Shown here: in pieces, positions 31,611 to 48,034 of the stretch
How positions within the stretch are numbered: the first letter of the stretch is position 1
Layout: each line of letters starts with the position of its first letter
UHGV virus genome: UHGV-0120889
Length of the DNA stretch: 64,000 nucleotides
DNA from: a virus
Direction: 5' to 3' (one strand)
Program-made: the position numbers and the translations under genes
The notes under the pieces: model-generated
The model's input: the letters and a program-made list of their open reading frames with translations, nothing else
The model's database searches: none
Told to the model about the DNA's origin: nothing

Positions 31611-32594
31611 ATGATGACAAAGTTAACTCTTGAGCAAATTTTAACACTAAAGCAACAGGGATACACTAATAGACAAATTGCTCGTGAATTTTTAGGCCGT
31701 GAGTCACGTGAGAGCTGGATCCGACTACAGCTTAAACGTGCACAAGAGAATATGTCAGAGATTCTAGGAGAAGCAACGGAGCGCTTCCTTGAAGAGCACA
31801 AAGGTGCTAAAGTTTGGGTGTATGATACAGAGACATCTCCAACAAACGGCTGGTTCTTTGGGCACTATAAGACCAACATTCAAACCTGCGGTATTGAAAT
31901 TATGCCCTACATGCTAACTTTCGCAGGTAAGTGGTTAGACAGTCCTAGTGTGGTTGACTGCGCTCTTCCTGATTACAAAATGTGGGATGAGGATATTCAC
32001 AATGATCTCGAATTGATTCAGGATTTGTGGTATTATCTGGATAAATGTGATGTCGCAGTAGCCCACAATTCAGGTTTTGACTGTGGGTGGGCCAACCAAC
32101 GATTTGCATTTCACGGATTGCCTCCAACAAGCCCCTACAAAGAGGTTGACACCCTTAAAATGATCAAGAAGGCATTCCGTTTGAATGCAAACACTTTGGA
32201 GTATGCATGCAAATACTTCCAACTTGCCCGACAGAAACTGATTGACCACACATTTGAAATGTGGATCAAGTGTGTTCACGGTGATCTTGAGGCGTTTAAA
32301 CAGATGCGGGAGTACAATGTTGGCGATATCCTATCTCTGGAAGGCCTGTATTTGCTGGCTCGCCCGTTTGCTAAGCAGCACCCCAACATGTCATTGTACT
32401 ACCAGGATGAGGAGCCAAAAGTTCGTTGCCCACGCTGTGGTGGAGAACACCTTCACGAGGAAGAAGCTTTGGCGTATACTCAACTGAGTGCATTTAAAAC
32501 ATACCGCTGCGAAGGTTGTGGATCTGTTGTTCGTGACCGTAACAACATCCGCACCAGAGAAGAAATGAAAAATACCCTGATTCAGATAATCTAA
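31611..32594 (+). CDS. DnaQ-like DEDD 3'-5' exonuclease with N-terminal HTH and C-terminal zinc ribbon
   Basis: Exo I VYDTETS, Exo II AHNSGFD, Exo III YNVGD; N-terminal QQGYTNRQIAREF HTH; CPRCGG...CEGCGS. Confidence 0.55.
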   Translation: MMTKLTLEQILTLKQQGYTNRQIAREFLGRESRESWIRLQLKRAQENMSEILGEATERFLEEHKGAKVWVYDTETSPTNGWFFGHYKTNIQTCGIEIMPYMLTFAGKWLDSPSVVDCALPDYKMWDEDIHNDLELIQDLWYYLDKCDVAVAHNSGFDCGWANQRFAFHGLPPTSPYKEVDTLKMIKKAFRLNANTLEYACKYFQLARQKLIDHTFEMWIKCVHGDLEAFKQMREYNVGDILSLEGLYLLARPFAKQHPNMSLYYQDEEPKVRCPRCGGEHLHEEEALAYTQLSAFKTYRCEGCGSVVRDRNNIRTREEMKNTLIQII

Positions 32595-32602
32595 CAATTA
32601 TA

Positions 32603-32630
32603 GGGAGGCTTGCGCCTCCCTTTTCCTTTT
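32603..32630 (+). terminator. rho-independent terminator
   Basis: GGGAGGC-TTGC-GCCTCCC perfect hairpin followed by TTTTCCTTTT. Confidence 0.75.
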
Positions 32631-32639
32631 GGAGGAACT

Positions 32640-33458
32640 TTGAGCAAGAAAGAGTCCAACGACAAATACTACACAAACCCTGAGTATGCAGAATATCTTG
32701 TTGGTAAAGTAAAAGATAAGTATGGGAATTGTGCATACGTTGAGCCTTCTGCTGGAAGGGGTTCTTTTTCAAAACTATTTTCAGAGATACTGTCGTACGA
32801 TTTAGTACCAGATCCTGAATTTGAAGGACCAACACCGTGCATTCAGGCAAACTTCTTGGAGGTGCATCCCAAGGCAGATGTCTTCATAGGTAACCCACCA
32901 TTTGGCAAGAATTCATCCTTAGCTTGCAAATTCTTTAACCATTGTGCATCATTGCTAGAGCTTGGAGGGGCTATAGCCTTCATCTTGCCACGGACATTTG
33001 AAAAAATATTTTTTGCAAACAAACTGGACATGTCGATGCACCTTGTCTACAGCGAAAGGTGCCCTAAGAATTCGTTTTTACTTAATGGCAAACCTTATGA
33101 CGTGCCATGTGTTTTCCAAATTTGGGAGAAAAAGGCGTGCAATAGGGATCCTGTAGAGATTGGAGAGAATAAGTTATTTTCTTTTAGCACACCAGATGAC
33201 TACGACTTCTGTGTAAGACGTGTTGGGTATAATGCTGGAAAAGTATTGGGGGATGATGACCCAAAATCTGAAGAATCAACATATTTCATAAAATCTTTAG
33301 TTAACGGTGTTGACAGAGTGTTTGCTGAATGCTATTCTTCTTTTCAAGAAGAAGCAGGTAAGACTGCTGGAATGAAGAGTATAGGTAAGAAAGAACTACA
33401 ATACATTTTGGAGACCAGGTATGATCAAAAGCATAGACTTGACCAAAGAACTTACTGA
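32640..33458 (+). CDS. DNA methyltransferase (NPPF motif; N6-adenine or N4-cytosine), TTG start
   Basis: Motif I VEPSAGRGSF and motif IV FIGNPPFG; GGAGG RBS then in-frame TTG after the terminator. Confidence 0.55.
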   Translation: MSKKESNDKYYTNPEYAEYLVGKVKDKYGNCAYVEPSAGRGSFSKLFSEILSYDLVPDPEFEGPTPCIQANFLEVHPKADVFIGNPPFGKNSSLACKFFNHCASLLELGGAIAFILPRTFEKIFFANKLDMSMHLVYSERCPKNSFLLNGKPYDVPCVFQIWEKKACNRDPVEIGENKLFSFSTPDDYDFCVRRVGYNAGKVLGDDDPKSEESTYFIKSLVNGVDRVFAECYSSFQEEAGKTAGMKSIGKKELQYILETRYDQKHRLDQRTY

Positions 33459-33879
33459 TGCAAAAGCTTTTGGTGAGACAGCGGTACAAAGAGGACAGGC
33501 GATGGGACTGGCACTACCTTTCGTCTTAAAAGAGCACTTTACAGATTTTCAACTTATCAAAGGTGATAAGGGAATGCTTATCCTGGAGCATAAGTTGAGT
33601 AAGAAACGCTATAAAGTCGTTTTTAATTCTAAAGCTCCAACAAAACTGGGATTCAGAACTTACAATCTTAACCCATCCTACACTAAGGGTGTTGGAAGGG
33701 TAGAACAACAGCATTTCAGTGCCAGAGCTTCTTTAGCCCCTTTGATGCTAAATTTCTCAGGGGTGGCTTTAGGATACCTTGATAAGAAAAGGGTTCTTCA
33801 TGTTCGTTTCACAGACTTTGTAACGCTTTTAGCTAACAACGAGGTTGATGAGAAGGGACGTGTAAAAACAAACTTCTAA
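33421..33879 (+). CDS. hypothetical protein (152 aa)
   Basis: ORF track. Confidence 0.4.
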   Translation: MIKSIDLTKELTDAKAFGETAVQRGQAMGLALPFVLKEHFTDFQLIKGDKGMLILEHKLSKKRYKVVFNSKAPTKLGFRTYNLNPSYTKGVGRVEQQHFSARASLAPLMLNFSGVALGYLDKKRVLHVRFTDFVTLLANNEVDEKGRVKTNF

Positions 33880-33894
33880 TAACGCATAGTATGA

Positions 33895-34098
33895 TTGGAG
33901 ACCGAAATGACACTAGAGTTAACAATTCCAGACAGCTTTTCAGAAAACTTTATCCCAGAAATGATGAGTAAGATGCGATCATTGCTTGATCAGATTGAGG
34001 AGGCTGTTTGGGAAGACGATGCTGTAGTGGCTAACGAGCTGGTAGATAAGTGTAAAAGTATTATTGATGCAGTTGAAGAATACCACGGAGGTTTTTAA
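33895..34098 (+). CDS. hypothetical protein (67 aa)
   Basis: ORF track; GGAG RBS; stop overlaps next start. Confidence 0.4.
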   Translation: METEMTLELTIPDSFSENFIPEMMSKMRSLLDQIEEAVWEDDAVVANELVDKCKSIIDAVEEYHGGF

Positions 34099-47500: not shown

Positions 47501-48034
47501 ATGACTTGTGCTCGAAAACCTGATGAACAACGTAACGCCTACGATGAGTATGTGACACCGGAGTGGTGTGCAGAAGGGCTGTACGACCTTATTCCGTTCC
47601 CAGAAGACTGGACCTACTTAGAGCCTTGCAGGAATAGTGCCTCAGGTGTGTTCTACTCCCGTATGCCGTTAGGATCTGCATGGGGAGAAATCCAAGAAGG
47701 TGTTGACTATCTGAATACAGAATACAACCATGTTGACTGTATTATCACCAACCCACCATACAGTTTGGCTCGTGAGTTTGTAGACAAGGCGTTGAAAGAT
47801 GCTGACGTAGTTATTATGCTTTTGCGTCTTAATTTTCTGGAAAGCAAAGCCAGATTTGAATGGTGGCTTGATAATGCACCTACCACTGTGATCACAATAT
47901 CTAAGCGTCCATCTTTTCAATCAAATGGCAGAACTGACGGGCAAGCATATGCATATTTTGTGTGGGATAAGAAAAACCGTTTAGGCTTGCCGCCATTTAT
48001 GTGGTTGGCACCCCCAGAGGTAGACCTGAAATGA
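47501..48034 (+). CDS. small DNA N6-adenine methyltransferase-like protein (NPPY)
   Basis: Motif IV IITNPPY plus upstream YVTPEW; 177 aa. Confidence 0.55.
   Translation: MTCARKPDEQRNAYDEYVTPEWCAEGLYDLIPFPEDWTYLEPCRNSASGVFYSRMPLGSAWGEIQEGVDYLNTEYNHVDCIITNPPYSLAREFVDKALKDADVVIMLLRLNFLESKARFEWWLDNAPTTVITISKRPSFQSNGRTDGQAYAYFVWDKKNRLGLPPFMWLAPPEVDLK

Follow-up and report, generated by a model that had tools for sequence, protein, structure and literature searches.

Genes and features at the locus

The stretch of viral DNA analysed here, the whole 64,000 nt of UHGV virus genome UHGV-0120889 (hereafter the window), carries a 272 amino acid (aa) methyltransferase gene with a TTG start at positions 32640–33458 of the plus strand, which is overlapped by 38 nt at its 3′ end by a second plus-strand gene at 33421–33879 (152 aa). 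These correspond to genes 100 and 101 of phage rV5, and their products are referred to as the methylase and gp101. The methylase is predicted to be a type II, gamma-class N6-adenine DNA methyltransferase with an inferred specificity for GTAC, and gp101 to be its partner, a protein with the PD-(D/E)XK restriction-endonuclease fold. Upstream lie the gene for a DnaQ-like exonuclease subunit (31611–32594, plus strand) and a terminator-like hairpin (32602–32630, plus strand).

In a nucleotide search of phage records, positions 32000–34000 of the window matched Escherichia phage rV5_ev147 with 100 % identity and 121 records with at least 90 %, nearly all of them from Vequintavirus, so that the window was assigned to a lytic E. 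coli myovirus of the rV5 type. The region was also matched by about 20 GenBank records that bear the name 'Campylobacter phage' (MG065654.1, among the matches listed, with 98.7 % identity), which suggests that these names belong to mislabelled or contaminant genomes.

GenBank records annotate a 272 aa gene at exactly 32640–33458 as 'putative DNA N6-adenine methyltransferase' or 'SAM-dependent methyltransferase', and in the supplementary tables of the rV5 genome paper of 2013 it is gene 100, 'adenine methyltransferase' (PMC3606486). The methylase, a member of a known family, and the hairpin, which together made up a preliminary description of the locus from its sequence, were already on record. 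The link to gp101, the restriction-enzyme ancestry of gp101, the assignment of GTAC and the existence of GTAC-free relatives were absent from the annotations inspected and the literature searched, and are new, as is the conservation of the TTG start among divergent viral lineages.

The methylase and its family

Three motifs follow one another in the order X-I-IV that is characteristic of the gamma class. These are a motif X-like DKYYTNP (aa 8–14, 32661–32681, plus strand), in which D8, Y11 and T12 are invariant or nearly so; motif I, the S-adenosylmethionine-binding loop VEPSAGRGSF (aa 34–43, 32739–32768, plus strand), with E35, P36, A38, G39, G41 and F43 invariant and EPSAGRG at aa 35–41 (32742–32762); and motif IV, the catalytic NPPF (aa 85–88, 32892–32903, plus strand), with G84, N85, P86, P87, F88 and G89 invariant. 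Conservation was judged on an alignment of 53 sequences of the family, and all 32 invariant family residues were present in the window protein. The PADLOC profile MTase_II PDLC03255 matched at full length (aa 8–253, 269 profile positions, E = 3.3e-34), and PHROG 799 'DNA methyltransferase' matched with E = 3.3e-13.

The 794 detectable relatives are 250–290 aa long, so that the methylase is a complete protein rather than part of a larger enzyme. The 377 positions of PHROG 5172 had hinted at a frameshift that would fuse the methylase with the next open reading frame (ORF). This was rejected because the homologues are complete at 250–290 aa; the following ORF also represents a separate family and has a ribosome-binding site and an ATG to itself.

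From the family alignment, AlphaFold gave a confident model (pLDDT 92.7), which comprised a Rossmann catalytic domain followed by a C-terminal domain that aligned with the recognition domains of DNA methylases. In structural comparisons the model aligned over 227–252 residues with M.BseCI, MmeI, M.TaqI and CamA. All full-length matches were to DNA N6-methyladenine (m6A) methylases, whereas RNA methylases aligned over the core of about 150 aa alone. Taken together, motifs, profile and model identify the gene 100 product as a predicted type II, gamma-class (TaqI-like) N6-adenine DNA methyltransferase, with m6A as its probable product. The preliminary description had read motifs I and IV as those of an amino-methyltransferase, a reading borne out by the full-length type II profile, the fold and the restriction-enzyme neighbours of homologues described below.

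Homologues were patchily distributed in bacteria (119 confirmed genome loci among 185,579 species) and abundant in viral contigs (at least 558 loci, many in giant-virus assemblies), a distribution that is not that of a housekeeping gene. The giant-virus assemblies rich in the family are the IMG/VR GVMAG contigs L109–L167, whose homologues include P0009 and P0036. Some homologues gave weak matches to Pfam PF26055, Mtase_EDM2, a name that presumably denotes the plant chromatin protein EDM2; the matches hint at a connection between viruses and eukaryotes in this family, and the accession PF26055 was not mentioned in the literature searched.

The overlapping gene gp101

In rV5, no homologue was reported for the 152 aa product of gene 101 (PMC3606486). 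The gene has its own ATG and its own Shine–Dalgarno sequence, GGAG (33410–33413, plus strand), 7 nt before the ATG. Many records (e.g. MN850626.1 and NC_041869.1) call it 'putative DNA N6-adenine methyltransferase', yet features of a methyltransferase are lacking, and the name seems to have been transferred from the gene that it overlaps.

With gp101 as the sole query, an exhaustive HMMER search recovered five relatives; a search based on an alignment yielded 22 family members of 133–152 aa. In Phapecoctavirus (BLASTP E = 2e-13) and in viral contig L102, the methylase gene is immediately preceded by a homologue that the profile detected. In the contigs with this family the gp101-like gene precedes the methylase gene, overlaps it by 8 nt and lies beside RNR and ThyX genes. 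This adjacency, in the gene order opposite to that of rV5, was found in Phapecoctavirus, in Klebsiella phage 05F01 and in contigs L102, L169–171 and L175, and the two genes were linked in five or more phage lineages. PVP-SE1, a member of the same subfamily, has a matching gene order around the site and lacks both genes: its exonuclease subunit gene is followed directly by a small ORF and a kinase-like gene. Likewise, phi92 gave no match to either family in its first 50 kb, a stretch that includes the exonuclease-subunit region. This joint presence and absence indicates that gp101 and the methylase behave as one cassette. The earlier view of the methylase as an orphan with no partner restriction gene does not hold, as the next gene is restriction-endonuclease-like and linked to it across lineages, and orphan status is doubtful.

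Identity of at least 99 % at the amino acid level was found in 97 Vequintavirus records for gp101, compared with 19 for the methylase; judged by this conservation, gp101 is not decaying and is under tight purifying selection.

Restriction-enzyme partners of homologues

When the neighbours of methylase homologues were clustered, two unrelated small families recurred directly beside the methylase. Members of the first, A2 (about 210 aa), matched the PADLOC profile REase_II PDLC03460 in 14 of 15 cases (best E = 8.6e-17), and were not matched by Pfam, NCBIfam or sequences in the PDB. The second, c3 (about 165 aa), has a clear E...D...(E/D)xK signature and matched REase_II PDLC03550; a tblastn search of phage records with one c3 member gave no match. 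One or the other adjoins a methylase homologue in many bacterial loci and in many viral ones, among them loci of some of the viral homologues closest to the rV5 methylase, which implies that this methylase family is normally half of a type II restriction–modification pair. A c3 member shared 39.6 % identity with the annotated R.RsaI of cyanophage Syn19; proteins annotated as R.RsaI were present in cyanophages Syn19 and ACG-2014j.

Profile–profile comparison by hhalign linked the gp101 family (19 members) to c3 with a probability of 93.9 % (E = 1.6e-7, 105 columns), whereas reversed c3 and 30 column-shuffled versions gave at most 2.2 %. The two families have the motif PSxxxGxGR in common. A model of gp101 (pLDDT 84.6, pTM 0.80) was compared with the viral structures of BFVD, where the first informative match was the 'R.RsaI endonuclease' of Syn19 (TM 0.65). 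Homology of gp101 to A2, which had been suspected by eye and from a weak BLASTP match, was rejected (hhalign probability 0.1–0.2 %). On the strength of profile comparison and model, gp101 is regarded as a remote homologue derived from RsaI-like enzymes, with the restriction-enzyme fold and a putative nuclease activity. At the positions aligned with the catalytic residues of c3, P33 stands in the gp101 family, followed by residue 58, which varies (D in 10 of 19 members), and by S/N-x-variable; D82 is nearly invariant in the family, and is N in the window phage.

GTAC as the probable recognition site

RsaI cuts only unmethylated GTAC and is blocked by GTm6AC; M.HpyAXII methylates the adenine of GTAC, as do M.CviQI and M.PabI, and M.RsaI makes N4-methylcytosine (m4C) (PMC2588503). 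From the identity between c3 and R.RsaI and the site of RsaI, the NPPF family is predicted to protect GTAC by adenine methylation. The methylase next to R.RsaI in Syn19 is of an unrelated class (SPPY), which is consistent with M.RsaI making m4C; transfer of specificity from the Syn19 methylase itself was rejected for the same reason.

The 16 four-base palindromes were counted against an expectation based on trinucleotides. GTAC was the most depleted of the 16 in the window (105 observed and 195 expected, a ratio of 0.54), followed by CTAG (0.59) and CGCG (0.66), with GATC, TGCA and AGCT at or above expectation. It also ranked first in the two other phages with a gp101-like gene and the methylase, phAPEC8 (observed/expected 0.28 in 50 kb) and Klebsiella phage 05F01 (0.46 in 40 kb). 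Loci in which the methylase is accompanied by A2 or c3 and no gp101-like gene gave 0.34 (viral, A2), 0.50 (viral, c3) and 0.48 (bacterial, c3), each with GTAC at rank 1, and 0.78 (bacterial, A2) at rank 3. In contrast, GTAC was not specifically depleted in the controls, three of them phages with neither gene, PVP-SE1 (0.79 in 50 kb, rank 6), phi92 (0.72 in the first 50 kb, rank 5) and T5 (0.81 in 30 kb, rank 3); the fourth, E. coli K-12, in which the cassette genes were not searched for, gave 0.85 in 50 kb (rank 10).

Two lineages have a gp101-like gene and no methylase found in their contigs, and in these GTAC was missing altogether. The four contigs of the P0140 lineage (10–20 kb) had none where 90, 81, 55 and 43 were expected, and the three contigs of the P0133 lineage (about 4 kb) none where 14–15 were expected in each; GTAC ranked first in both. 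In the P0140 lineage an unrelated ORF of 112 aa occupies the slot of the methylase. The P0140 contigs (L185, L186, L187 and L188) and contigs L176–L178 are Phapecoctavirus-like, with the gp101-like gene between the primase/helicase and DNA polymerase genes.

The depletion of GTAC tracks the cassette, in keeping with GTAC as the site on which the cassette acts. Depletion and partner homology together point to GTAC as the probable target of the methylase.

Start codon, terminator and expression

The perfect terminator hairpin noted before the gene in the preliminary description is real. The hairpin GGGAGGC-TTGC-GCCTCCC (32603–32620), with a stem of 7–8 bp including six G–C pairs and a loop of 4 nt, is followed directly on its 3′ side by the interrupted U-tract TTTTCCTTTT (32621–32630). 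It was the top terminator-like site in an 8 kb scan (14 sites, compared with 5.5 expected in shuffles), and the folding energy of the 71 nt hairpin region was −23.4 kcal/mol (z = −2.6). It is listed as rho-independent terminator t099 (dG −15.3) in Table S4 of the rV5 genome paper (PMC3606486), and ends the exonuclease-subunit gene. With a G+C-rich stem–loop, a U-tract and a position at the end of a transcription unit, it has the sequence features of an intrinsic terminator.

The TTG start is likewise supported, although its distance from the hairpin had been misjudged as 7 nt: it lies 19 nt after the last base of the stem and 9 nt after the U-tract. These 9 nt, GGAGGAACT, contain a strong Shine–Dalgarno sequence, GGAGG (32631–32635, plus strand), 4 nt upstream of the TTG, and the arrangement GGAGG-N4-TTG recurs in Phapecoctavirus. 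From the upstream in-frame stop to the conserved N-terminal DxYYT motif the sequence has no ATG, and an earlier in-frame TTG at 32610 falls within the hairpin loop. Position 32640 is the single plausible start, and the resulting N-terminus MSKK... agrees with the MSKK...D(Q/K)YYT of homologues. TTG with an upstream Shine–Dalgarno sequence was the forced start in about 10 divergent viral lineages with 40–54 % protein identity (Phapecoctavirus, Klebsiella phage 05F01 and contigs L091, L092, L095, L097, L098, L108, L169 and L175), and other relatives start with ATG; the TTG start of the methylase is evolutionarily conserved. In 05F01 (LC483177.1, L194 20465–21192) the methylase is intact and full length from the TTG, and the record mis-calls it as a 35 aa ORF and a 200 aa 'DNA methyltransferase' with ATG starts downstream of the TTG.

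Where a restriction-enzyme or gp101-like gene precedes the methylase, the TTG overlaps the end of that gene, which suggests translational coupling. Phapecoctavirus keeps the TTG without a terminator, so the weak start is independent of the terminator. In PVP-SE1, where the cassette is missing, another hairpin stands at this place behind the exonuclease gene, and the terminator is thus attributed to the exonuclease gene; arrival of the terminator together with the methylase gene was rejected on the same grounds.

Between t099 and P105 no promoter is listed for rV5 (PMC3606486), so that genes 100–104 would need either read-through or an unlisted promoter. As the genes without a predicted promoter before P105 include essential types such as a dNMP kinase, the terminator would have to be leaky if there is no such promoter. 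Dependence of the methylase on read-through is plausible from this arrangement. A candidate internal sigma-70 promoter (GGTG-TTGACA-17 nt-TATTCT with an extended −10 TG, 10 of 12 matches) lies at 33310–33338 on the plus strand, inside the 3′ part of the methylase gene and 83 nt before the ATG of gp101. It resembles the published rV5 promoters in form, including the preceding GGTG, and could drive gp101 and the genes downstream; if it is real, the methylase would be the sole gene to depend on read-through alone. In phAPEC8 (JX561091.1, L181 17483–17521) a host-type promoter is annotated immediately upstream of the gp101-like gene, and the gp101-like gene, methylase and DNA polymerase form one unit with its own promoter, unlike the rV5 arrangement behind a terminator.

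Proposed function of the cassette and alternative explanations

On balance it appears somewhat probable that the methylase targets the adenine of GTAC in phage DNA, and that with gp101 it forms a two-gene cassette derived from a restriction–modification system, in which it is protective and held in low supply. The methylase would mark the GTAC sites remaining in the phage genome, so that GTAC-directed cleavage spares phage DNA. The source of this cleavage would be gp101, provided that it has kept nuclease activity, together with any host enzyme of the RsaI type. Translation would start from the conserved weak TTG behind a strong ribosome-binding site and, with the gene placed directly after the leaky terminator of an upstream replication-gene operon, supply is probably kept low.

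A general anti-restriction function, as first proposed for the methylase, is unlikely, because the Vequintavirinae are reported to be exceptionally sensitive to the restriction–modification systems tested in the BASEL study (PMC8594841). Protection by the methylase is most likely limited to the one site GTAC. To our knowledge, none of the restriction–modification systems in that study targets GTAC.

Several observations count against the proposed protective cassette. For the methylase, the Pfam family Eco57I scored 16 bits, below its cut-off of 25.3, the MTS family was also below threshold, and no match was found among NCBIfam profiles or in a sequence search of PDB chains. For gp101, comparison of its profile with the single Syn19 R.RsaI sequence was not significant (probability 3.7 %), and PADLOC found no restriction endonuclease match in any family member. 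The catalytic E...D...(E/D)xK residues of c3 are not conserved at the aligned positions, and in the rV5 group K58 and N82 stand where most relatives have D. The name R.RsaI in Syn19 is a depositor's label, and the methylase beside it is of the SPPY class. The palindrome counts cover four control genomes and 20–64 kb of each genome. Depletion of GTAC in a phage that methylates GTAC is unlike the prediction of simple self-protection, and since host enzymes alone can purge a site, the lineages with zero GTAC are no proof of cutting by gp101. The literature searched held no expression or methylation data for the window phage, no Vequintavirus methylome and no RsaI or GTAC data on these phages.

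A stronger form of the same explanation, which has a fair chance of being correct without reaching the point of being probable, is a complete offensive restriction–modification system, in which gp101 is an active GTAC endonuclease directed against host or competitor DNA and the methylase shields the phage. The restriction-endonuclease fold and remote RsaI-like homology of gp101, its tight conservation and its gain or loss together with the methylase fit such a system. The graded GTAC ratios (0.54, 0.46 and 0.28) in genomes with the methylase and the zero counts in gp101-only lineages fit it as well, and self-inflicted cleavage explains a graded loss better than occasional restriction by hosts. 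An offensive system also gives the best account of counter-selection of GTAC despite the methylase, of methylase loss in GTAC-free genomes alone and of the conservation of gp101. It is harder to reconcile with a canonical catalytic triad that is not conserved at the aligned positions, with the loss of two acidic residues in the rV5 group and with the lack of restriction endonuclease profile matches to gp101; the occurrence of gp101 without the methylase in two lineages is compatible with a function unrelated to cutting GTAC. More tentatively, rV5-like, phAPEC8-like and related large lytic enterobacterial phages may carry an unrecognised complete GTAC type II system, with an offensive gp101 that is a diverged RsaI-like enzyme with a rearranged active site; pressure on the phages' own genomes would then have lowered GTAC, to extinction where the methylase was later discarded.

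It is rather unlikely that the methylase is functionally an orphan that counters host enzymes of the RsaI/CviQI type, with gp101 either an inactive relic or a protein with an unrelated role in DNA metabolism. The catalytic residues missing from gp101 would be expected of a relic, and its position between primase and polymerase genes without the methylase in two lineages would suit the second role. Other phages, such as GAP32, have the methylase and lack gp101. Host enzymes are known to have driven the complete loss of a site in other phages. However, gp101 remains adjacent to the methylase in both gene orders, both genes are absent together from the PVP-SE1 site and from the first 50 kb of phi92, conservation is stronger for gp101 than for the methylase, and GTAC is depleted despite a protective methylase, none of which would be expected if the methylase acted alone.

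An epigenetic or housekeeping mark for replication, packaging or discrimination of host and phage DNA, rather than anti-restriction, is improbable. The gene is always found in replication or nucleotide-metabolism modules (exonuclease subunit, primase/helicase, DNA polymerase, RNR, ThyX), as such a role would predict, but the family is otherwise one of restriction–modification, the close relatives PVP-SE1 and phi92 manage without the cassette, and some lineages have replaced the methylase and removed every GTAC, which indicates that the mark itself is dispensable. Finally, the possibility noted at the outset that NPPF marks an RNA (rRNA or tRNA m6A or N2-methylguanosine) or protein methyltransferase was examined and is very improbable: the weak Pfam MTS match and the JGI name 'predicted RNA methylase' for some homologues are outweighed by such matches covering the Rossmann core of about 150 aa only, by a C-terminal domain that aligns only with DNA methylases, by the full-length type II profile match, by the restriction-enzyme neighbours of homologues and by a sporadic distribution typical of mobile elements and not of housekeeping enzymes of the METTL5, RsmC or Trm type.

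Comparison with known systems

The methylase resembles gamma-class enzymes of the M.TaqI/M.BseCI/CamA type (Pfam Eco57I/N6_Mtase clan; PADLOC MTase_II PDLC03255/03256) in its X-I-IV motif order, its NPPF loop and its full-length type II profile match. It differs from them in size (272 aa, compared with 380–580 aa) and in its compact and highly conserved recognition domain. By predicted site and by setting, the closest functional analogues appear to be the GTAC adenine methylases and the restriction–modification systems of chloroviruses. M.CviQI (from a chlorovirus), M.HpyAXII and M.PabI produce GTm6AC, the site and product proposed for the gene 100 methylase, and are viral or mobile genes paired with a small GTAC endonuclease, a setting like that of the cassette. 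The chlorovirus systems likewise combine a lytic virus with a small type II methylase beside a small endonuclease-like gene, and protect the viral genome by methylation. In those systems, nuclease activity and degradation of host DNA have been demonstrated, whereas gp101 is a highly diverged, putative nuclease.

In size class, fold, PSxxxGxGR motif and gene slot beside the methylase, gp101 resembles the small R.RsaI-like PD-(D/E)XK enzymes (c3), from which it differs in lacking their aligned E...D...(E/D)xK residues and a restriction endonuclease profile match. Dam of T4 and T2 is, like gene 100, an adenine methylase gene of lytic phages located in a DNA-metabolism module. Dam enzymes belong to the alpha class, have the motif DPPY, target GATC and have no nuclease-like partner. 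The gene 100 methylase, in contrast, is of the gamma class, is linked to a gene with the restriction-endonuclease fold and comes from a family otherwise found within restriction–modification pairs.

Phages of the rV5-like and phAPEC8-like groups are among the most often isolated coliphages and are included in typing sets, biocontrol cocktails and the BASEL collection. If their GTAC sites are methylated, they would carry a defined epigenetic mark that could be checked by a single RsaI digest, with consequences for the use of phage DNA in cloning, sequencing and host-range work. If gp101 cuts GTAC, it would be a weapon, so far overlooked, directed at host DNA or at co-infecting phages, and would represent a new family of restriction enzymes with an unusual active site; interest in the locus would rise if nuclease activity and a rearranged catalytic site were demonstrated for gp101. 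The comparison also exposed annotation errors, namely the methyltransferase label on gp101 and the splitting of the 05F01 methylase into two short genes, and it illustrates how the recognition site of an uncharacterised methylase family can be assigned by combining palindrome counts with gene linkage.

Other methyltransferase-like genes and the exonuclease subunit

A second small methyltransferase-like ORF was present in the window at 47501–48034 (plus strand, 177 aa), with the motifs EPCRNS... and NPPY. It shared 61 % identity with PVP-SE1 gp152, 'DNA methyltransferase', and its Pfam matches were all below threshold (EcoRI_methylase, E = 4.7e-4; Dam, E = 1e-3). Unlike the gene 100 cassette, this ORF is common to PVP-SE1 and phi92. 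A third methylase of rV5, the Mod-like gene 235, lies outside the window (PMC3606486).

The DnaQ-like exonuclease subunit encoded upstream of the hairpin carries a C-terminal CxxC...CxxC zinc ribbon (aa 265–312), which gave weak matches to several zinc-ribbon families, including Lar_restr_allev (E = 0.004).

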